DNA of 64,000 bases from Bryobacteraceae bacterium (GTDB lineage: Bacteria > Acidobacteriota > Terriglobia > Bryobacterales > Bryobacteraceae), in the NCBI GenBank assembly GCA_036500405.1, contig DASYCD010000256.1:5816-69815 (forward strand), given 5' to 3'. The notes under the pieces were generated by a model. The model was not told where the DNA came from, did no database searches, and saw nothing but the letters and a program-made list of their open reading frames with translations. Each line of letters opens with the position of its first letter. The first letter of the stretch is position 1. Of the stretch, positions 44,438 to 64,000 are shown piece by piece. A program made the position numbers and the translations under genes.

Positions 44438-45709
44438 TTACCTCTTTACAGTGATCTTCAGACCACCCTGCGTGTTCACTCCCTGGTAGGTGCACTGGAT
44501 CGGGTTGTCGCCGTCAGTGGCTCCATTCGGGATTACGACATTGAGCTGGTAAAGACCGGGGCTCACCACGCCGGCATAGGTAACTGTCGCCGATGCGTTG
44601 TTGATCTGACAGGTTGGCAACACGGGAAGAGGGCTCGACTGGGTATTGGAGCCCGGAACCAGCGTGTCCTTCGGCAGACCGAAGCCGCTCGTCCACAACA
44701 CTACGGTTTCGCCAACAGACGCGGGAGTCGAGAAGCCCGTAAAGAGACTGGTGGGGCCCAGTATCCTGTAATCGGCGTGGGTTGCTGTTACGTAGGGCTT
44801 GCTTCCGTCCCACTGGAACAGCGAGGGGGTCACCTGAGTCTCAGTGACTTTAAACGCCGCCGAAGTGGCTGAGCCATTCGAGACAACTACGTCGACCGGT
44901 CCTGTCGTGGCGTCGAGCGGTGTCAATGCATTGATTTGATCCTGCGAAGTGCAAACAGATCCCGGCGCAGTGCTGGCGGCGCAATAGAAGTAAACGTAGG
45001 CCGTTTTGCCGTTCACTTTTACGCTCACGCCATTCAGCGAATCCGGCATCAATCCATTTGCGAATGAAGGGGCATTGCTCCAGAGCGCGCCGCCCACTGG
45101 TGTTCCAGCTGGGGCCAGGTTCGTACCCCGGATTGCGATCCACGTATTTTGCGAAACTCCCGTGCCGTATGCGGCTGCCGCAGACGCAATGACCGGGGTA
45201 TTCCCGCCGCCGGCGCTCACAGACACTTGAACGCTCACGCCAGCCACCGATTGCAGCGTAAGGTTGCCAGCCGACGTTTTCATCGGGCTGGCTGTGGGAA
45301 ACACATTCGTGGTGCCCTGAGTGGCGGCCTGGCTGGCAGACAAGGTATAAGTCGAAAACACTGGATTGCCTACAGTCAGGTAATCCGGAGAGTCGTAGTG
45401 CCAGACGCCTAGCGTCTGCTCGTCCTGATGGACGAAGACGGACTGGTTGTCAGCAAGAGTGAACTTTCCAGCTGGCCCGAAGTCCGCCGCCGCAGGTGTT
45501 CCCGAAGGTGTTGAGTAATCCTCCGCGCAGCACGGGGTTCCATGGGTCACGCTTGACGTATCGGTAGTAAAGGTGATCGAGAATGGCTGGTTGGTGAACG
45601 CCGTAGCGCCGACGCTGCCAGTCGCATTACCGGAAAAGACAATGGTCATCGGCGCCGCCAGAACCGGAGATGCAACAAGAGCTGCCAGCAGCAAAAAGCG
45701 TTTGATCAT
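44438..45709 (-). CDS. Secreted protein with C-terminal Solibacter-type (TIGR03437-like, IPT/Ig-like) domain
   Basis: It has a signal peptide. The C-terminal 230 aa read NTWIAIRGTNLA...VSVKVNGKTAYVYF...PSLFQW...YAGVVSPGLYQLNVVIPNG. Confidence 0.7.
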   Translation of the reverse strand: MIKRFLLLAALVASPVLAAPMTIVFSGNATGSVGATAFTNQPFSITFTTDTSSVTHGTPCCAEDYSTPSGTPAAADFGPAGKFTLADNQSVFVHQDEQTLGVWHYDSPDYLTVGNPVFSTYTLSASQAATQGTTNVFPTASPMKTSAGNLTLQSVAGVSVQVSVSAGGGNTPVIASAAAAYGTGVSQNTWIAIRGTNLAPAGTPVGGALWSNAPSFANGLMPDSLNGVSVKVNGKTAYVYFYCAASTAPGSVCTSQDQINALTPLDATTGPVDVVVSNGSATSAAFKVTETQVTPSLFQWDGSKPYVTATHADYRILGPTSLFTGFSTPASVGETVVLWTSGFGLPKDTLVPGSNTQSSPLPVLPTCQINNASATVTYAGVVSPGLYQLNVVIPNGATDGDNPIQCTYQGVNTQGGLKITVKR

Positions 45710-54963: not shown

Positions 54964-55455
54964 ATGGAATCGGAATCGCCGGACATGGTGGCCGGCAGAT
55001 CGACAAACAGGCCGGCGGCGGTCGACAAACGCGTCCTCGTCGTCGTGGGTTTTCTTTTCATCCTCGGCGCCGCTTATCTGCTCTCGCGAGCAAGCACACC
55101 GGTCTCGCCCGCGCCGCAAACATCGGTTTTTGCGGTCTCTCCCCCCAATGGCGCAGTGGCTGCGGCCGAAGCCGCGGTAAAACAAAGCGCAACGCCCGAA
55201 AACTATCTGAACCTATCCCTGGCGTATAGCAGGGCGCGGCGATTTCAGGAGTCGTTGGACGCCGCGAAAAATGCGGTCCGGCTGCGTCCGAATTATGCCG
55301 AAGCCTTCAACAATGAAGCTGCGGCCTACGAAGATCTACATCAGTGGGACGATGCAATTGCAGCCGCGCGGGAAGCTCTAAGATTAAAACCGGATTTCAC
55401 GCTCGCCCGCAACAACCTGATCTACGCGGCATCGCAAAAGACGCGCGGTAGATGA
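54964..55455 (+). CDS. Membrane-anchored TPR-repeat protein
   Basis: It has one TM helix (VLVVVGFLFILGAAYLL) and TPR repeats (NYLNLSLAYSRARRFQESLDAAKNAVRLRPNYAEAFNNEAAAY). The track start 54928 is a TTG that coincides with a -35-like hexamer. ATG 54964 or ATG 54985 is more likely. Confidence 0.6.
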   Translation: MESESPDMVAGRSTNRPAAVDKRVLVVVGFLFILGAAYLLSRASTPVSPAPQTSVFAVSPPNGAVAAAEAAVKQSATPENYLNLSLAYSRARRFQESLDAAKNAVRLRPNYAEAFNNEAAAYEDLHQWDDAIAAAREALRLKPDFTLARNNLIYAASQKTRGR

Positions 55456-55579: not shown

Positions 55580-55609
55580 TTGACCGCTAAATGTGTGCTC
55601 CAGTAGAAT
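55580..55609 (+). promoter_or_regulatory. Sigma-70-like promoter candidate for the collagen-like gene
   Basis: TTGACC (55580-55585), an 18-nt spacer and TAGAAT (55604-55609) lie in an unusually AT-rich intergenic region, 88 nt upstream of the ATG. Confidence 0.35.
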
Positions 55610-55696: not shown

Positions 55697-58681
55697 ATGG
55701 TATTTTCGCGACTTGGGAAAGTTCCGTGCTATGGGATTATTTTGCTGGCGGCAGCTGTCTCCGCTGCCGCGCAGGGGCCCGAAATCACGTCGGTTCAGAG
55801 CGCAGCTCCACTTGTGCGCTCCACCGGCAACGTGGCGCGCGGCGAGTTGATCAGTATCTACGGCTCGGGTCTGACAACGGGTGTCACGCTGAACGCCTAT
55901 CCGCCGACTGCTCCAACGACCCTCGCAGGCACGTCAGTGAATATTGGAGGTATTGCCGCCCCGATCCTTTATATAAGTCCTGGGCAGCTGAACGTCCAGG
56001 TCCCCTTTGAGCTTCCCGCGGGCTCGGCCTCTGTGAACGTGACGGTTACCTCCGGAAGCCAGACGAGCACCCCATTCCTGATGACTTTGGCCGCGTCGGA
56101 CCTGGGAATGTTTGTGGCGCAGGGAACGAGTATCGCCGCTCCATCCTCGGCGAACACCGCCGTGATTTTGGCGGCTCCAGGAAATACAATCCACATCGTG
56201 GCGACCGGGCTTGGCGCCATTGCGCCTGCTGTGCCGAGCGGTATGACGCCGAGTCCCGTGGGGCCGACGTCTAATGCTCTCGCAATACCGGCGGTTACAG
56301 TGAACGGAGCGGCTGCCCAGGTTGATTCGGCCACATATTCCGGCCTCGGACTCTATCTCATTTCGGCCATTGTGCCGCCCAGCGCCGACACAGGCACAGT
56401 CACGGTAGCTCTCGGAGCAACGGGGCTTGTCGGACCAACCGGAGCAACCGGACCTTCTGGCGCGACGGGAGCGACAGGGCCAATCGGTCCAGCGGGAATA
56501 GATGGGTCTGCGGGACCGGCGGGACCGGCGGGGCAAGCAGGTCCTGCCGGATCAGCGGGACCAATGGGTCCGGCGGGAGCAGCAGGGTCGCCTGGAGCAG
56601 TTGGCGCTAACGGGGCAACAGGCGCTACCGGTGCAGTCGGCGCAACCGGTCCCTCGACCGTAAACTACACATCGAACGGCAGCACGGGAAATCTGCTGCA
56701 GACACTGGCAGTCGTCGGCACGGCGTCGGAAGCTCAGGACGCGACCACGTCCACCTTGACCGGTATCGTTGGAATCGCCGGTAACACAACGACTGCCGGT
56801 TCGCCTGTAGCGGTAAGCTCCTACGGCACCACGGCTTGTGTGTTTGACGGTCCGACGACCGCTGGCGACTATTTCCAGGCCAGCACCACCGTTGCCGGAA
56901 ATTGCCACGATGCGGGAGCGATCTATCCCACCAGCAACCAGATCCTTGGGTTTGTTTTGTCAACCAACGGTAGTGCGGGCATGAACCCGGTATTTCTGTT
57001 CGGAGTGGAAATTCGCGGCGGCGCAACGGGCCCGACAGGAGCCACCGGCGCGGTTGGTGCGACGGGCGCAACCGGAGATGCAGGCGCGACAGGCGCGCAG
57101 GGAATTCAGGGCATCACCGGAGCCGTAGGCGCGACGGGCGCGCAGGGAATTCAGGGCTTCACCGGAGCCGTAGGCGCCACCGGCGCAGAGGGAATCCAAG
57201 GCATAACCGGAGCTATAGGCGCGACAGGCGCGCAGGGAATTCAGGGCTTCACCGGAGCCCAGGGACCAGCCGGCTCGCAAGGCGTTACAGGCTCCCAGGG
57301 AATTCAGGGACCTCAGGGAATTCAGGGCATCCCGGGTACGACAGGCACAACCGGCGCGATGGGCGCGACAGGAAATCCGCCGACGGCGGCGGGGACATGG
57401 TCAGCGGGAGACGGCAGCGGCGCCGGCGGCAGTTACAACGCCGGAGACGTCGTATTCTACGCTCCGACGCAATCTTCGTATATCAGCGCCGCGAGCCTGA
57501 ACTTCAGCGTGCCCCCGGCTTCGCCATGGCAACTGCTTTCCGCGCCAGGTCCGACCGGGACCACGGGTACGACTGGGGCTGTGGGGTCGACCGGAGCAAT
57601 CGGAGCGACAGGCGATACCGGAGCACAAGGTATCCAGGGAATCACCGGCCCTGTTGGGGCAACGGGTACGACCGGAACCATGGGCACAACGGGCGCGCAG
57701 GGTATCCAGGGATTCACCGGACCGCAGGGACCGGCCGGCGAGCAAGGCATCACGGGCGCACAGGGAATTCAGGGTAATCAGGGTAATCCGGGCTTTGCTG
57801 GTGCGACCGGCGCGACAGGCGCAACCGGCGCCACAGGCAGCCCGTTGCTCGCGGCGGGAACATGGTCGGCGGGAGGCGGCAGCGCTCCCGACCATAGTTA
57901 CAACGCGGGCGACGTCGTATTCGATGCGCTGACACAGTCGTCCTATATCAGCGCTTCGAGCGAAAACAACAGCACGCCTCCGAACGCGCCATGGCAGCTG
58001 CTCTCGGGGCCAGGCGCGACGGGGACCACGGGGTCGACTGGCGCGACGGGCGCGACAGGCGATGCTGGACCGCAGGGTATTCCGGGAATCACCGGCGCGG
58101 TAGGGGCAACGGGCAGCACTGGCGCCACCGGAGCTACAGGCTTAACGGGTGCGCAGGGCATCCAGGGTATTACAGGACAGCAGGGACCCGTTGGTGCGAC
58201 AGGCGTGGGCTTGACGGGAGCGGCGGGTTCACCTGGTCCAGCCGGTCCGACTGGTGCCACTGGCCCCAGTGCAGCCGGAGGCGGAGTATATGCGGGAACG
58301 TTCACAAATACTGGCAACACAACGCCGACGGTAGACTTTTACCCCTTCTTCGCCTCAGGAAACGGTGGCCCCAATTTCTCGATCGGCGCGACGATCTTGC
58401 CGGCCGCGTGCACGGTAAAAGCGATGTACGTCCTGGCATATAACAATGGCCAATTTAGCGCCGCCGCAGATACGCTGACTTTCGTTCTCTATCACAACGG
58501 CAGCGTTGTATCCGGCGCTACAGCCAGCGTGACGACGAGTAGTACGTCATTCCAAAGATTTACTAACAACGTGACGGGCCTCAGCGAATCCATCTCAGCA
58601 GGCGATGTGATCGCGATAGGAATCCAACAATCAAGCAACGCCCCCGGCGTGAGTGGTTCTTACTCGATTAGTTGCCAATGA
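55697..58681 (+). CDS. Secreted multi-domain collagen-like (Gly-X-Y triple-helix repeat) protein
   Basis: GGGGGAGG lies upstream of the ATG and a signal peptide follows. The N-terminal roughly 210 aa form a Solibacter-type Ig-like domain. The four Gly-X-Y blocks are 56414-56656 (27 triplets), 57020-57379 (40), 57548-57844 (33) and 58013-58270 (28, with one G-X-G break). They are separated by globular inserts and followed by a 136-aa C-terminal globular domain. Confidence 0.9.
57083..57262 (+). repeat. Four tandem 45-bp (15-codon) repeats inside collagen block 2
   Basis: The units start at 57083, 57128, 57173 and 57218. Each encodes [10 protein letters not shown](I/F)TGA(V/I) and variants. 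Units 1, 2 and 4 are nearly identical and each contains GAATTC. Confidence 0.9.
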
Positions 58682-58862
58682 GGATACAGAACACGCCCAT
58701 ACAGGAGAAACCGAAATCCTGACCGCTCTCCTTACATCCCGGGATCCGGCGAGGACCGTCTGGCGCTGAGTACGTGCGACGGACCTCGCTGGCATTCTTG
58801 ATTCCGGCGCGAATTGCAGTCTTAAGCAGCAACTACCGTATACAACAGAAAGGACCTTTCCA

Positions 58863-59429
58863 ATGGCTGACACACCTATTCTCGGATGCATTTACATGTT
58901 CGCGGGCAATTTCGCGATCAGAGGCTACCAGATGTGCAACGGACAAATTTTGCCGATTTCCCAGTACGCGGCATTGTTTTCCATTCTCGGCACCACTTAC
59001 GGAGGTAACGGCACGACGACCTTCGCCCTCCCCGATTTGCGCGGACGCGCTCCGGTCCATCAGGGCACCGGACTTGGACTGTCGCCGGTGGAGTTGGGTG
59101 AAGCCGCAGGCAACCAGAACGTCTCGCTTACCGTAGCCAATCTGCCGGCGCATACGCACGTACCGACGGTAACGGTCGCGGTCAATGGAGCGGGTGCCCG
59201 CCCAACCGCCAACACGCCCGCCGGGAATCTCCTCGCCACAACCGCAACGACAAATAATATATACTGTCCTGGAAACTCAACCCCGCTTGCTCCCCTCGCC
59301 GCGGCGGCTGCCACTGTTACTGCGCAAAACGGTTTGACCGGAAGTAACATTCCTGTAGCTACCCAATCGCCCTTCCTCGGCGTCACGTTCCTCATTGCTA
59401 CGGAAGGCATATTCCCATCACGGAATTAG
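58863..59429 (+). CDS. Phage-tail-collar domain protein (MdpB / tail-fibre-like family)
   Basis: ILGCIYMFAGNFAIRGYQMCNGQILPISQYAALFSILGTTYGGNGTTTFALPDLRGR, NLPAHTH and C-terminal IATEGIFPSRN form the typical full-length family pattern. Confidence 0.85.
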   Translation: MADTPILGCIYMFAGNFAIRGYQMCNGQILPISQYAALFSILGTTYGGNGTTTFALPDLRGRAPVHQGTGLGLSPVELGEAAGNQNVSLTVANLPAHTHVPTVTVAVNGAGARPTANTPAGNLLATTATTNNIYCPGNSTPLAPLAAAAATVTAQNGLTGSNIPVATQSPFLGVTFLIATEGIFPSRN

Positions 59430-59435
59430 CTTGTC

Positions 59436-59936
59436 ATGCATAAAATGCTCCGGGTCTTCTGCGCGACGGCATGGGAACTGGAGGGAGAGCGCCGCGCTTT
59501 CCATGAAGCAATTGGAGAATTCAACGAAACCGAGGCCATGAAGCATGGTTTGCTCTACGTCCCGGTTTCGTTGATTAACATCCGCGACAAGCGTCCTTAT
59601 CAGTACGTGGTCGAAGAGAATATCGGCGCCTGCCGTGCGTATATCCTCGCGCTCTGCGACGGCTCCTGGGGGCCGCCCGAGCGAAACTTTGAGCGAGACC
59701 TGATGCTCGCGGCACAGCAAAGCGCCAATCCGGATTTTCCGATGCGCGATGTCACGCTGCTGTATCGCGAGCCTTCCTCGCCCCCCAAACCCCTTCCCGC
59801 AGACGTGACCGTATCGCCCTTTTCCACGACCGAAGATTTTGTCCGCCAGTTCCGCGCATTGATGTCCACCTGGCTTGCCGCCGACCTCGCCGTGACGGAG
59901 AGCCCCGCGCCGGCTGGCGCCTCACCCGCTTTATGA
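59436..59936 (+). CDS. Hypothetical protein
   Basis: This 166-aa ORF lies 6 nt after the tail-collar gene and has an ATGA overlap with the next gene. I cannot name a family with confidence. Confidence 0.5.
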   Translation: MHKMLRVFCATAWELEGERRAFHEAIGEFNETEAMKHGLLYVPVSLINIRDKRPYQYVVEENIGACRAYILALCDGSWGPPERNFERDLMLAAQQSANPDFPMRDVTLLYREPSSPPKPLPADVTVSPFSTTEDFVRQFRALMSTWLAADLAVTESPAPAGASPAL

Positions 59937-60415
59937 CGGTTTCGTTCCGTCCGGAGACTCCCGGCGACGAGCCCTATCTTCGCGAACTGATCGTGGAAGC
60001 CGTGAGCCAGGAGCTGGGCGCCGACTCATGGCCGGAACCGATGCGAAGCCATCTGTTGAGAATCCAGTACACGCAGCGCCGCTACGCCGTTCGCGTCCAC
60101 TATCCCGAAGGCGAAAGCCGCATCATTCTCGCCGACGGGAAAACCGCTGGCTGGATTTATGTGGCCGCTCTTCCGGATGAGATCCGCATCGCGGAGATCA
60201 TGGTGATGGCCGGATCCCGGAGTCGCGGAGTGGGGTCGGAGGTTATCCGGCGGATCGTCGCCGAGGCTGGCCCTTCCGGTAAGCCCGTGCGCCTGCACGT
60301 GAACGTGATGAACGTACGCGCCGGCGGCTTTTATGAACGCCTCGGATTTCAGCGCATCGGCGGCGACGAACTGCAGCACCTGATGGAGCGCCTTCCGTCG
60401 GCTGAGATATGCTGA
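59933..60415 (+). CDS. GNAT-family N-acetyltransferase
   Basis: IAEIMVMAGSRSRGVGSEVIRRIV (motif A, R-x-x-G-x-G) and FYERLGFQ are present. Confidence 0.8.
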   Translation: MTVSFRPETPGDEPYLRELIVEAVSQELGADSWPEPMRSHLLRIQYTQRRYAVRVHYPEGESRIILADGKTAGWIYVAALPDEIRIAEIMVMAGSRSRGVGSEVIRRIVAEAGPSGKPVRLHVNVMNVRAGGFYERLGFQRIGGDELQHLMERLPSAEIC

Positions 60416-62079
60416 ACGCCCTCGATCTCCCGCTTCGATTTGATCCGGCAAAACTACAGGCGGACCTCGCGCGCATTCAGCCGCACGAATGGGCGCCGCA
60501 CTATAACGAACAGGAATATGGCGGCGAGTGGCGCGGCGTTGCTTTACGATCCGCATCCGGGCAACTGGGCGGGATTGCGGCCCAGGGCAGTTCCTTCGCC
60601 GACACGGAAGTGCTGCGGCGTTGCGATTATTTCCGCGAAATTCTGGCGGGCTTCGAATGCCGTCTGCTGTCGGTTCGCCTGCTCAGCCTGGCTCCGGGTT
60701 CGTTTGTCCGAGAGCACTGCGACCGTGCGCTTGGCTTCGACGACGGCGAAGTACGGATTCATATTCCGATCGAGACCAACACCGGCGTCGAGTTCTATTC
60801 CTGCGGCGAACGCCTGCGTCTGGCGGAAGGCGGCTGTTATTACGTGGACGTGAGCCGGCCACACCGCGTCGCCAACCGCGGGGGACGCGATCGCGTTCAC
60901 CTGGTGATCGATGCAGAAGTGAACGACTGGATTCGCCAACTGTTCTCAGAGGCGAGGGCAACCGAACGAATCGCGCCGCCGCCGCTGGGGTTCGCGGCAT
61001 TTCGCGACGTGGTTCTGGCGGATACCGAATTGCGGCAGGCCCTGCACGCAATTTCGGAGCCGCGGGAATTCGTCGACGAGGTGATTCGCGCCGGCCACAG
61101 CCGTGGTTTCGAATTCGACGCGGCGGATGTCGAAGCGAAACCAAACCCGCTTCCCGAGTCTTCCCCGCCCGCTTCTTCTCCATCCGGCGCGTGGATTCCC
61201 ATAGCGCTGAAGGAGACCGCCGCGGAGTGGATTTATTTCGGCGCTCGGCGCTTCACCCAGCCATTTTTCGACGACGACGTGAAAGCGGCGCTGCAAAATC
61301 GCTTCGCGCGGACATTCCGGCGAATCGCGCCGCTGCCGAATGGACAGAATTGTTCCCCGTCCGGCTTCATCCTCCACATGTCCCGCTGCGGCTCCACGCT
61401 GGCCGCGCGCATGCTTGCGGCGCTCCCCAACGCCACTGTGATCTCGGAAGCTCCCATTCTCGATGAGGCGATTCAAACCGGCCGCGCCGAAATCGTGCGA
61501 TCCGCCGTCGCCGCTCTGCAGATCGAAGCCGGGCCGTACTTCATCAAATTCGATGCCTGGCACATTCACCGCCTGCCGCTGATCCGCGAAGCCTTTCCCA
61601 ATACACCCTGGGTGTTCCTCTATCGCGAGCCGCTCGAGGTCCTGGTATCGCAATCCCGCATGCCCGGCCGAATGTCCCTCCCGGGCGCCATGGATCCGGC
61701 AATCCTGGGGATGCGACGCGAAGACATCACGATTCCCAGAGACGAGTGGTGCGCGCGCGTCATCGCCGCGTTCTGTGAATCGGCTCTGCGATACCGGTCC
61801 GATCCTCAGGGATTATTCGTGAATTATCGCGATCTCTGCGAAGCCGGCCCGGCAATCCTGCTTCACCACTTTGGCGCCGGTATGGATGACACCAAACAGG
61901 CCAGCATGGACCTCGCGATGGCTGCGGACGCGAAATTCCCCTCCCGCCCGTTTCAGCCGGATGGCGAAAGTAAGCGCGACGCCGCTCCGGATGCTCTGAG
62001 ACAGCTTTGTGTGCGCACTGTGAATCCTCTTTATCGCGAACTCGAGGCGGCGGCCGAATCCGCTTTCGCTAAGATTTAA
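60409..62079 (+). CDS. Three-part fusion of an Asp/Asn beta-hydroxylase-type 2OG oxygenase, a Nif11-like linker and a sulfotransferase
   Basis: The N-terminal cupin has VREHCD...RIHIPI...VSRPHRVAN (H-x-D...H triad). The middle part FAAFRDVVLADTELRQALHAISEPREFVDEVIRAGHSRGFEFDAADV is Nif11-like. The C-terminal part has ILHMSRCGSTL (PAPS 5'-phosphosulfate loop) and FLYREPLEVLVS. Confidence 0.65.
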   Translation: MLNALDLPLRFDPAKLQADLARIQPHEWAPHYNEQEYGGEWRGVALRSASGQLGGIAAQGSSFADTEVLRRCDYFREILAGFECRLLSVRLLSLAPGSFVREHCDRALGFDDGEVRIHIPIETNTGVEFYSCGERLRLAEGGCYYVDVSRPHRVANRGGRDRVHLVIDAEVNDWIRQLFSEARATERIAPPPLGFAAFRDVVLADTELRQALHAISEPREFVDEVIRAGHSRGFEFDAADVEAKPNPLPESSPPASSPSGAWIPIALKETAAEWIYFGARRFTQPFFDDDVKAALQNRFARTFRRIAPLPNGQNCSPSGFILHMSRCGSTLAARMLAALPNATVISEAPILDEAIQTGRAEIVRSAVAALQIEAGPYFIKFDAWHIHRLPLIREAFPNTPWVFLYREPLEVLVSQSRMPGRMSLPGAMDPAILGMRREDITIPRDEWCARVIAAFCESALRYRSDPQGLFVNYRDLCEAGPAILLHHFGAGMDDTKQASMDLAMAADAKFPSRPFQPDGESKRDAAPDALRQLCVRTVNPLYRELEAAAESAFAKI

Positions 62080-62082
62080 ATC

Positions 62083-64000
62083 ATGCGACGATCGATGACG
62101 TTCGTTGCGGCGCTCTCTGTATTGCTTGCCGTTACGCTGACCTACACGAATCATTTTCATAACGCGTTTCAGTTCGATGATTTTCACAGCATCACAGACA
62201 ACGTCTTTATCCGCGACCTCTCGAATATTCCGAAGTTTTTCACCGACGCCCGGACGTCCAGCGTCTATCCCACGCACCAGGCATGGCGTCCGCTCGTCAC
62301 AACGTCTCTGGCGCTCGACTACTGGCTCGGCCAGGGTTACAACACCTTCTATTTCCATCTCTCCACGTTCCTGTGGTTCCTGACGCTGCTGGTTTTCGCA
62401 GCCTGGCTATTCCGGGCCATTCTCGACAAAGTCGAGCCCGATCCGCGAAATCTCTGGATTGCCTGGTTTGCGGCGGCCTGGTTCGGCCTGCATCCCGCGA
62501 TTGCCGAAACGGTGAATTACATCATCCAGCGGGCGGACCTGATGTCCACGTGCGGCGTGGTTGCCGGCGTTGCGATCTACGCGGCCTTGCCGAAGTGGCG
62601 GGCGTGGGGCATCTACCTGCTGCCAGTCGCGATCGCCTTTCTTTGTAAGCCGCCCGCCATGATTTTTCCGGCGTTGCTGGCCCTGTATATTTTCCTGTTC
62701 GAAGAGGATGCATCGCGCGGGAGCTGGCCGCGGGTGTTTCGGAGGACATTGCCATCGTTGGCCCTGACGATTGCGTTCCTTGCGCTTCAGGCCACAATGA
62801 CGCCGAAGAGCTTTTCGCCCGGATCTGTTTCGGCGTGGCGCTACCTCATCACACAGCCCTATGTCTGGTTCCGTTATTTCGTTTCGTTTTTCCTGCCGTT
62901 CCACCTGAGCGCCGATACCGATCTCTCCGCGCTGAGCAGTCTGCTGAGCCTGGAGGCGCTGGGAGGGCTGCTCTTTGTTGCCGTGCTCGTCTTCGCAATC
63001 GTCGTTTTGTCGAAACGTCCGGCGGCGCGGCCGGTTGGGTTCGGACTCGGGTGGTTTGCGCTGAGCCTGATTCCGACTTCGATCTTCCCGCTCGCGGAGG
63101 TCGAAAACGATCACCGCATGTTTCTTCCATTTATTGGCCTGGTGCTCGCGGGTGCGTGGACAGGCGCGGCGATCCTGAGACGACGCCGCGAATTCCAGAC
63201 CGTTCTTGTAGCCGGAGCGCTCTGCGTGCTGCTCCTCTACGCCCTGGGAACTCGCCGCCGCAACGAAGTCTGGCGAACGCAGGACAGTCTCTGGGAAGAC
63301 GTGACTTTGAAGAGTCCCCAAAACGGCCGGGGACTGATGAATTATGGGCTGGCGCGAATGTCCGTCGGGGACTATCGCGTGGCGCTGAATTATTTCGAAC
63401 GCGCGCTTCAGTACACGCCCAACTATCCGTCGTTGGAGATCAACCTCGGAATCGATTCCAGCGCTTTGGGCCGCGACACGGAAGCCGAGGCGCACTTCCG
63501 GCGCGCGATCGCACTCGCTCCCACAGACTCCGAGCCGCATTATTACTACGGGCGATGGCTCCGCGGCAAAGGACGGAATGATGAGGCTATCGGGGAGTTG
63601 CGGACAGCGATCGGCTTCAATCGCGCGGACATGAACTCTCGTGTTCTGCTGCTCGCCACGTACGCGGATAAGGGAGATTGGGCGCAGCTCAAACCGTTGG
63701 CGATGGAAACGCTGCAACTCGCGCCGAACGATCCGGAAGTCCGCCGTTATGCGTCCATGCAGCCGTCGCAGCAACAGCCGCGGCCAGCGGCGGCTGCTCC
63801 CGCGAATGCGGTAGATTCGATGATCAACCTTTCCCTTCAGGCGTTTCAGAAGGGGGACTTCGAAGGCTGCATCCGTGACGCGAAGATGGCGCTCCAGCTA
63901 AAGAAGGATTCCGCGGAAGCCTGGAATAACATCATCGCCGCAAATAACGCGCTTCACCGATGGGATGAAGCCATCCAGGCGGGCCACGAGGCGCTCCGGA
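62083..64000 (+). CDS. TMTC/PMT-like GT-C-fold membrane protein with C-terminal TPR repeats (3' end outside window; absent from ORF track)
   Basis: I translated 639 codons from ATG 62083 to the window end without a stop. It has about 10 TM helices, FQFDDFHSITDN after TM1 (an acidic GT-C loop motif), then TPR repeats (GLMNYGLARMSVGDYRVALNYFERALQYTPNY...). Confidence 0.75.
   Translation, partial: MRRSMTFVAALSVLLAVTLTYTNHFHNAFQFDDFHSITDNVFIRDLSNIPKFFTDARTSSVYPTHQAWRPLVTTSLALDYWLGQGYNTFYFHLSTFLWFLTLLVFAAWLFRAILDKVEPDPRNLWIAWFAAAWFGLHPAIAETVNYIIQRADLMSTCGVVAGVAIYAALPKWRAWGIYLLPVAIAFLCKPPAMIFPALLALYIFLFEEDASRGSWPRVFRRTLPSLALTIAFLALQATMTPKSFSPGSVSAWRYLITQPYVWFRYFVSFFLPFHLSADTDLSALSSLLSLEALGGLLFVAVLVFAIVVLSKRPAARPVGFGLGWFALSLIPTSIFPLAEVENDHRMFLPFIGLVLAGAWTGAAILRRRREFQTVLVAGALCVLLLYALGTRRRNEVWRTQDSLWEDVTLKSPQNGRGLMNYGLARMSVGDYRVALNYFERALQYTPNYPSLEINLGIDSSALGRDTEAEAHFRRAIALAPTDSEPHYYYGRWLRGKGRNDEAIGELRTAIGFNRADMNSRVLLLATYADKGDWAQLKPLAMETLQLAPNDPEVRRYASMQPSQQQPRPAAAAPANAVDSMINLSLQAFQKGDFEGCIRDAKMALQLKKDSAEAWNNIIAANNALHRWDEAIQAGHEALR

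Follow-up and report, generated by a model that had tools for sequence, protein, structure and literature searches.

A conserved gene cassette behind a bacterial collagen-like gene may unite two protein-modification partnerships

We analyzed a 64,000-nucleotide stretch of a metagenome-assembled genome of a soil acidobacterium of the Bryobacteraceae (the window; contig DASYCD010000256.1), in which a gene for a secreted collagen-like protein is followed on the plus strand by five closely packed genes. These encode a tail-collar (Collar) protein, a 166-residue protein, a GNAT acetyltransferase, a fusion of a 2-oxoglutarate (2OG)/Fe(II) oxygenase with a sulfotransferase, and a membrane glycosyltransferase of the GT-C class that bears TPR repeats. 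This cassette is real, conserved and uncharacterized. The reading we favor, to which we give an even chance of being correct, is that it represents a true operon joining two partnerships: that of the collagen-like protein with the GT-C enzyme, and a cytoplasmic module composed of the Collar protein, the 166-residue (DUF4062-like) protein, the GNAT and the fusion enzyme. The original prediction for this locus, made from the DNA sequence alone, held that the entire string assembles and decorates a collagen fiber, and that it would be found beside collagen-like genes in other genomes. Such conservation did emerge, in nine species-level genomes of Acidobacteriota, but the string proved to be a composite rather than a single unit, and the prediction as a whole is supported in part.

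Re-derivation of the open reading frames confirmed all five genes located 3′ of the collagen-like gene, and the junctions proposed for them are exact: 6 nucleotides, a 4-nucleotide overlap, a 7-nucleotide overlap and 3 nucleotides. The collagen-like gene (55697–58681; 994 residues) ends 181 nucleotides before the gene for a leaderless Collar protein of the T4 gp12 type, similar to COG4675/MdpB (58863–59429; 188 residues). The genes for the 166-residue protein (59436–59936), the GNAT (59933–60415; 160 residues), the fusion enzyme (60409–62079; 556 residues) and the GT-C/TPR enzyme (62083–64000, running past the window end) follow, all on the plus strand, such that the Collar-to-fusion module sits between the collagen and GT-C genes. 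Profile matches and a fold search upheld the families to which the genes behind the collagen-like gene had been assigned.

The collagen-like protein matches PF01391 (Collagen, 9.8e-52) and contains an N-terminal domain of the IPT-like TIGR03437 family (Soli_cterm; residues 42–249). By inspection, it begins with a signal peptide, and it reads as a Sec-exported protein. Its 128 G-X-Y triplets, 44% of which carry Thr at Y, are distributed over four blocks that are broken by one insert of 120 residues and two of 55. The protein concludes with a C-terminal domain of approximately 130 residues that possesses two Cys and the terminus ...SCQ; a Pfam search with the C-terminal 133 residues returned no match.

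The GT-C/TPR protein, of which 639 residues lie in the window (relatives comprise about 665), has a membrane region that matched no Pfam family at E values up to 10. Its AlphaFold2 model (pLDDT 90.7) contains about 11 transmembrane helices, and a search of PDB folds with this model returned GT-C enzymes for all of the top 14 matches. ArnT was found at E = 8.8e-4 and TMq 0.50, and the GT-C matches further included STT3, AglB, PglB and Pmt4, the last at rank 20 with TMq 0.52. An Asp pair past the first transmembrane helix (D32-D33), in the first external loop, is invariant in 32 relatives, and TPR repeats begin at about residue 410 (TPR_2, 2.2e-18). The enzyme had been described as TMTC/PMT-like, which is borne out by the GT-C fold and TMTC-like architecture but not by a DUF1736 loop or by a PMT match: tested against the criteria of the PMT family (PF02366/PF13231, with PMT and MIR domains), the protein yielded no Pfam match.

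What this GT-C subfamily is conserved with is a collagen-like gene. One lies directly 5′ of the GT-C gene in four of the five relatives sampled at 60% identity or higher (P0244, P0250, P0260 and P0267; identities of 71%, 69%, 68% and 60% among the four), within loci that lack Collar, GNAT and fusion genes and that differ in their flanking genes. Between the window protein and the collagen encoded 5′ of one GT-C orthologue (locus L195), the Soli_cterm N-domains are 60% identical; the L195 collagen also has G-X-T repeats and a C-terminal domain ending in ...TCQ. In two of these collagen–GT-C loci, the GT-C gene is overlapped at its 3′ end by a GT2+GtrA_DPMS_TM gene, of a type that makes polyprenyl-phosphate sugars; two further sampled loci have such a gene nearby. 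Adjacency of the GT-C and fusion genes is confined to the closest relatives. Because four of five close relatives stand behind a collagen gene in the absence of Collar, GNAT and fusion genes, the comparison supports periplasmic O-glycosylation of collagen; the proposal that the GT-C enzyme glycosylates the collagen-like protein is thus probably right. In this partnership, the catalytic loop and TPR domain of the enzyme would face the periplasm, where a sugar would most likely be moved from a polyprenyl-phosphate donor to Thr or Ser of the exported collagen, with the G-X-T repeats or the IPT-like N-domain as candidate acceptor sites.

Several further features of these proteins were observed. 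The two inserts of about 55 residues in the window collagen (57380–57550 and 57851–58012; residues 562–618 and 719–772) are 74% identical, and W/Y-rich inserts that appear alike by eye occur in the collagens of L195, L197 and L198. Their motif, W-x-x-G-...-Y-x-x-G-D-x-V-...-P-W, is reminiscent of CBM5/12 chitin-binding modules, but it has no Pfam match. We compared collagen C-termini from the window and from L005, L007, L010, L014, L017, L019, L038, L195 and L198. A domain of about 130 residues that has one conserved Cys in its interior and another as penultimate residue recurs in many of these collagens (termini ...SCQ, ...SCN, ...RCQ and ...QCK), and a second type terminates in ...SDG(N)HxW...; neither type belongs to a Pfam family. 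At locus L201 (8059–8529 and 13890–14133), a GNAT gene lies directly 3′, on the opposite strand, of a GT-C/TPR paralogue of 53% identity, and a Collar gene is found 5.7 kb from that paralogue, an arrangement that may be due to chance.

The second partnership emerged from a survey of loci that encode the fusion enzyme, a family for which at least 563 related proteins and, in species-representative genomes, at least 580 loci were found. We inspected the best 79 of these loci at species level, covering 10 kb on each side with iterated profiles. Collar genes were present in 44 loci, with a median Collar-to-fusion gap of about 1 kb; GNAT genes were present in 40, and the two occurred together in 37. 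The Collar–GNAT–sulfotransferase set extends across Acidobacteriota, Alpha-, Beta- and Gammaproteobacteria, Planctomycetota and Verrucomicrobiota. Collagen-like genes were detected in nine loci, all from Acidobacteriota and always directly 5′ of Collar genes, leaving 35 of the 44 Collar-containing loci without one. The gene for the 166-residue protein was found in six loci, and relatives of the window GT-C/TPR protein in four, the latter as weak matches that mostly covered the TPR portion only.

Individual loci illustrate how the set varies. Around a fusion relative of 79% identity, the string of the window recurs as genes for a small TPR protein, a collagen-sized protein, two Collar proteins, a 162-residue protein, a GNAT, the fusion enzyme and a 667-residue TPR protein. 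At 55% identity, three collagen and three Collar genes accompany a 166-residue gene and the fusion gene, without a GNAT or GT-C gene; at 46% identity, three Collar genes and a GNAT gene stand with the fusion gene, and collagen is missing. At this last locus (L002, 15313–17842), two DUF6916 genes and a PhyH-family oxygenase gene also adjoin the three Collar genes. Metagenomic data supplied 80 contigs around close Collar relatives, 15 of which carry a collagen-like gene directly 5′ of Collar. All five of the collagen-then-Collar contigs that extend at least 3 kb downstream encode the fusion, and among the 22 metagenome loci flanked by 3 kb or more on each side, the fusion is found in 10, the GNAT in nine and either of them in 13. 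The fusion is nearly absent from viral sequence: one or two of the 2.9 million viral contigs of IMG/VR contain a full-length fusion relative, the one clear case carrying a GNAT gene and three Collar genes as well.

The Collar protein itself matches PF07484 (1.3e-26; 92.7 bits against a cut-off of 24), and its best PDB matches are structures of the T4 short tail fiber (1ocy/1pdi). Alignment of relatives revealed conservation of a P-x-H-x-H motif (in 95 relatives) and of a C-terminal GIFPSRN; the former may be equivalent to the HxH metal site that holds the gp12 trimer. The domain starts at residue 8 in the window protein and, in nearly all relatives, 5–7 residues past the start codon, so close to it that no room is left for a signal peptide. 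Collar genes usually occur singly or as three tandem paralogues, triplets of approximately 175-residue paralogues being typical. No match was found when the exact sequence of the window protein was looked up. Membership in a virion finds no backing in the locus, which has no phage neighbors in the 12 kb upstream and whose cellular gene set recurs across phyla. In published work, signs of positive selection have been reported for tail-collar paralogues of ‘Candidatus Solibacter usitatus’ (PMC3174227), and in Acaryochloris marina three tail-collar genes (AM1_3688–3690) and an adjacent gene for a putative acetyltransferase (AM1_3686) share differential-expression tables, where they stand among co-regulated genes (PMC11633204).

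The acetyltransferase of the module is a GNAT protein (PF00583, Acetyltransf_1, 5.8e-10; 39.9 bits against a cut-off of 20.7). Its best NCBIfam match, the RimI-like TIGR01575, is sub-threshold (37.2 against 86.4 bits) and falls short of the equivalog level. Rim-type N-terminal acetyltransferases classically act on proteins that begin with Met-Ser or Met-Ala. Ser or Ala occupies position 2 in 75 of 107 Collar proteins encoded within 3 kb of a GNAT gene, as compared with seven of 30 that lack one (Fisher p = 5.7e-6), the GNAT-less set being drawn from loci whose flanks reach 3 kb or more. Counted per locus, the figures are 49 of 60 with a GNAT gene and five of 19 without.

Encoded between the Collar protein and the GNAT is the 166-residue protein, which has no direct Pfam or NCBIfam match and whose family of 137 proteins likewise contains no member matching Pfam. 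An AlphaFold2 model (pLDDT 93) has a flavodoxin-like fold. Fold searching returned nucleoside 2-deoxyribosyltransferase, DNPH1 and TIR proteins, but these PDB matches (TM 0.43–0.55, E > 1e-3) are too weak to assign a function. An exhaustive profile search with the family retrieved DUF4062-TPR proteins, and remote relatives match PF13271 (1e-6 to 1e-10), to which the window protein itself has no direct hit. Given that the domain is naturally fused to a GNAT in three proteins (P0370, P0381 and P0399), the 166-residue protein is most likely a DUF4062-like partner of the GNAT.

The fusion enzyme comprises an oxygenase half (residues 1 to about 180), a Nif11-like helical domain (residues 196–243) and a sulfotransferase half (residues ~310–556). 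The oxygenase half belongs to PF05118 (Asp_Arg_Hydrox, 2e-13; 50.9 bits against a cut-off of 22.6), as do all 17 relatives in our alignment, in which the H103-x-D105...H152 iron triad and R162 are invariant. Its best PDB match is L-proline cis-4-hydroxylase (4p7w, 1.7e-13), with which the triad aligns. The sulfotransferase half is a borderline match to PF13469 (Sulfotransfer_3; 27.3 bits against a cut-off of 27), a family matched by 15 of the 17 relatives, at best with 2.3e-9. An SRCGSTL loop is invariant in the same 17 proteins; we read it as the 5′-phosphosulfate (PAPS) P-loop. In a PDB profile search, similarity to TPST1 did not reach significance (E about 0.75–1). Many Alphaproteobacteria encode a version of the enzyme that has no oxygenase half but has the Nif11-like and sulfotransferase domains. 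The Nif11-like domain (60994–61137; TIGR03798, 3.2e-5; PDB 9zn4, 1.5e-3) is kept at the N-terminus of these sulfotransferase-only homologues; Nif11 is a leader type of peptides that are made by ribosomes and modified after translation (RiPPs). We know of no characterized oxygenase–sulfotransferase fusion joined by a Nif11-like domain, and our literature searches uncovered no description of one.

A further arrangement of the module stands somewhat apart. In 13 loci from Alphaproteobacteria and Azonexus (L047, 10022–18834, and L032, L046, L048, L052–L054, L056, L057, L065–L067 and L078), a sulfotransferase-only homologue, three Collar genes and a GNAT gene cluster with maturation genes of the lasso-peptide type, namely those for an Asn_synthase-like protein (~640 residues), Transglut_core3, an HPr-kinase-like protein and Sulfotransfer_1. 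At L047, the sulfotransferase and Asn_synthase-like genes overlap, and the Collar genes and GNAT gene follow, all on one strand. Lasso-type genes were found only in these alphaproteobacterial and Azonexus relatives and not in the acidobacterial loci, and a literature search revealed no paper linking tail-collar proteins to lasso peptides. Prompted by these clusters, we entertained the idea that Collar N-termini (Ser1...Glu7) are leaderless lasso substrates and discarded it for the window: Gln often replaces Glu, and the acidobacterial loci lack both cyclase and protease.

How these two sets of genes might function together can be outlined. The Collar protein, 166-residue protein, GNAT and fusion enzyme carry no signal peptides, whereas the collagen-like protein reads as exported. 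Given this, the occurrence of the module mostly without collagen, and the way in which the GNAT tracks the Collar N-terminus, the Collar protein is a likelier substrate of the cytoplasmic enzymes than is the exported collagen. The GNAT, aided by its DUF4062-like partner, would acetylate the leaderless Collar N-terminus after removal of Met. We assign the fusion enzyme to the same target on the basis of linkage, the translational coupling of its gene to that of the GNAT, and compartment; it would hydroxylate a residue, probably of that Collar protein, and then O-sulfate the hydroxyl so formed. Since the module has repeatedly been placed directly behind acidobacterial collagen-like genes, the Collar and collagen proteins, both presumably trimeric, probably work together, for instance as binding head and stalk. 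A bolder statement of this scheme, which we regard as rather doubtful, is that the module constitutes an unrecognized, cross-phylum Collar maturation pathway, in which DUF4062-assisted N-terminal acetylation by the GNAT is combined with hydroxylation and then O-sulfation by a single enzyme on cellular gp12-like trimeric binding proteins, and that the GT-C protein is the first TMTC-type O-glycosyltransferase of bacteria for which genetics assigns a substrate, namely collagen. We know of no description of a hydroxylation-then-sulfation pair on a bacterial protein.

A number of points weigh against our favored account. All of its substrate assignments derive from gene linkage, and the two putative trimers occupy different compartments, the Collar protein being leaderless and the collagen exported. 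Approximately 45% of fusion loci lack a Collar gene within 10 kb, those of Myxococcus, Caulobacter and some Bryobacteraceae among them, and their neighbors are lineage-specific only; the fusion enzyme therefore need not act on Collar proteins. The nearest solved relative of the oxygenase, 4p7w, uses free proline and not a protein, and in an alignment of Collar proteins (114 versus 17) no convincing column tracks the presence of the fusion. The position-2 correlation is uncorrected for phylogeny and depends on start codons set by rule. Finally, the GT-C–collagen link is based on eight sampled relatives, of which one at 64% and three at 58% identity or below have no collagen neighbor.

Foremost among the alternatives is the scheme closest to the original prediction, in which all four enzymes decorate the collagen, with hydroxylation, sulfation and acetylation preceding Sec export, glycosylation taking place in the periplasm, and the Collar protein serving only as a tip or adaptor. 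Certain adhesins are known to be modified in the cytoplasm ahead of their export by Sec (HMW1C, autotransporter heptosyltransferases), and we count this in favor of the scheme, as we do the retention of the string in nine species-level loci, the presence of the fusion in every collagen-then-Collar contig with sufficient downstream sequence, the relationship of the oxygenase to a proline hydroxylase, and the occurrence of Pro at 17% of X positions in the window collagen. Nevertheless, we consider it unlikely. The GNAT and the hydroxylase/sulfotransferase, put forward as collagen partners, are instead conserved with tail-collar genes, and most Collar loci containing the fusion have no collagen gene. 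The GNAT tracks the N-terminus of Collar, while that of collagen is a cleaved signal peptide. Hydroxylation in the manner of animal and giant-virus collagens, invoked by the original prediction, would find few targets, as Lys is absent from the Y position of the window collagen (0.00) and Pro is rare there (0.05), with similar values in 19 related collagens; moreover, the oxygenase is of the PF05118 type and not that of collagen prolyl or lysyl hydroxylases. Collagen is accordingly a less likely target than the Collar protein for hydroxylation, sulfation or acetylation. A quite different possibility is that the GNAT and fusion enzyme act on a small molecule, a RiPP-like peptide or a glycan, and that the Collar protein binds, carries or senses the product. 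The leader-type Nif11-like domain, the 13 loci that pair the module with lasso-type maturation genes, the action of the nearest solved oxygenase on a free amino acid, and the many fusion loci without a Collar gene would all fit. The window and the acidobacterial loci, however, contain no lasso-type maturation genes (Asn_synthase, Transglut_core3) and neither a B-protease nor a C-cyclase gene, short precursor open reading frames not having been searched for, and the tight Collar–GNAT pairing and the correlation of the GNAT with the Collar N-terminus also speak against this reading, which we judge quite unlikely.

Two further proposals concern the ends of the cassette and its origin. The GT-C/TPR protein could be a general periplasmic glycosyltransferase, or one with another substrate, that owes its position to lineage-specific gene order. 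Its family is very large, with 1621 relatives at the least, more distant relatives reside in unrelated contexts, and only the closest relative adjoins the fusion gene. We nonetheless hold this to be improbable in view of the collagen genes found directly 5′ of four relatives of 60–71% identity despite differing flanks, one of which encodes the N-domain that is 60% identical to that of the window protein. Both the collagen-like and Collar proteins match tail-fiber families in PHROGs, as would be expected if the locus were a decayed prophage tail-fiber region without cellular function. This we reject as highly improbable: the open reading frames are intact and their junctions translationally coupled, the gene set is conserved across phyla, full-length fusion relatives are exceedingly scarce among viral contigs, and the genes in the 12 kb upstream are ordinary cellular ones, none of them from phage, in agreement with the original observation that phage genes are lacking elsewhere.

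The DNA around the cassette contains several other features. A gene for a small, membrane-anchored TPR protein of about 163 residues (54964–55455, plus strand; TPR_2, 1.4e-8), possibly an accessory, precedes the collagen gene. Its product is 43% identical to the C-terminal TPR region of the GT-C protein and, as read from the translation, has one hydrophobic segment. Similar small TPR genes lie 5′ of the collagen gene in L005 and the P0003 locus and also occur in L001 and L203. Between this gene and the collagen gene is a sigma-70-like promoter match on the plus strand (55580–55609; TTGACC-18-TAGAAT, 10 of 12 consensus positions), which is a consensus match only: sites of this kind are no more numerous than shuffling leads one to expect. 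The collagen–Collar spacer contains a long imperfect hairpin in the centroid structure (58743–58796, plus strand), possibly an attenuator or mRNA stabilizer. We considered and dismissed a terminator at this location, as a terminator scan made no call and a proper U-tract is missing; the stability of the 181-nucleotide spacer as a whole is no better than that of shuffled sequences (z = −0.97). Elsewhere in the window, a second Soli_cterm protein is encoded on the minus strand (44438–45709; secreted, 423 residues; TIGR03437, 1.7e-38), in which the domain is C-terminal as opposed to N-terminal in the collagen-like protein. A PADLOC scan for defense systems returned no matches.

As the original prediction had supposed, our literature searches found no published description of this system, nor any paper linking tail-collar proteins to sulfotransferases or to collagen-like genes, nor any description of a bacterial TMTC-like enzyme with a collagen substrate. 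Modified surface fibers are already known in bacteria; it is these pairings of enzyme and substrate that are not known. Eukaryotic TMTC-type enzymes are difficult experimental subjects whose rules of substrate choice are unclear, and if the GT-C protein does glycosylate the neighboring collagen, it would offer a simple bacterial model for TMTC-type O-glycosylation. If the fusion enzyme does hydroxylate and then sulfate a protein, it would constitute a new bacterial route of protein modification. The Collar–GNAT–sulfotransferase module, present in many soil and water bacteria, would open a first functional approach to the ‘microcystin-dependent protein’ tail-collar family, which is widespread yet unexplained and for whose cellular members (COG4675 ‘MdpB’) we found no reported function.

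Comparison with characterized systems places each part of the cassette near a known relative. The collagen-like protein recalls BclA of the Bacillus cereus group exosporium: both are bacterial collagens rich in G-X-Thr triplets that end in a globular domain, and the window protein would be trimeric as BclA is. In BclA, O-glycans are attached to the Thr residues. BclA, however, is handled by soluble glycosyltransferases in the mother-cell cytoplasm, while the window, from a diderm phylum, encodes a membrane GT-C enzyme with periplasmic TPR repeats; BclA loci are without tail-collar, GNAT and hydroxylase/sulfotransferase genes, and the C-terminal domain of the window collagen belongs to no detectable family, where BclA-type proteins have a C1q/TNF-like trimerization domain. 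The window collagen also differs from the collagens of animals and giant viruses that undergo prolyl and lysyl hydroxylation, being short of Pro and Lys at Y.

The GT-C/TPR protein resembles the eukaryotic O-mannosyltransferases TMTC1–4 and TMEM260 in its GT-C domain of about 11 transmembrane helices, the DD in the first external loop and its non-cytoplasmic TPR repeats. The window enzyme and TMTC have their best structural template in common, ArnT (5ezm/5f15), and the criteria for the TMTC family applied here are published ones (PMC7801869). TMTC enzymes O-mannosylate Ser/Thr with dolichyl- or polyprenyl-phosphate-mannose, a kind of donor at which the GT2+GtrA_DPMS_TM genes beside GT-C relatives hint indirectly. 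The exported proteins that TMTC and TMEM260 modify are targeted in beta-sandwich or Ig-like domains, those of TMEM260 specifically in IPT domains (PMC10214176), and the window collagen has an IPT-like N-domain. The window enzyme departs from TMTC in lacking a match to the DUF1736 loop, located between transmembrane helices 7 and 8 of TMTC, or to a Pfam GT-C family, and, unlike its eukaryotic counterparts, it comes from a bacterium and has a collagen-like gene as its genetic partner.

Among the cytoplasmic components, the Collar protein shares with T4 gp12 and COG4675 ‘MdpB’ the Collar domain, the P-x-H-x-H motif and the conserved C-terminus; it differs from gp12 in having no shaft, virion or phage neighborhood and in being encoded with a GNAT and a sulfotransferase. 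The GNAT is similar to RimI, RimJ and RimL in its small size and in having predicted substrates that start with Met-Ser or Met-Ala, but it is paired, and in relatives sometimes fused, with a DUF4062-like domain, and its predicted target is a tail-collar and not a ribosomal protein. The fusion enzyme unites two predicted activities in one polypeptide: an oxygenase akin to AspH and L-proline cis-4-hydroxylase, with the HxD...H triad and Arg aligned to 4p7w, and a sulfotransferase that we compare with the TPST/RaxST type for its PF13469 match and P-loop-like SRCGSTL.

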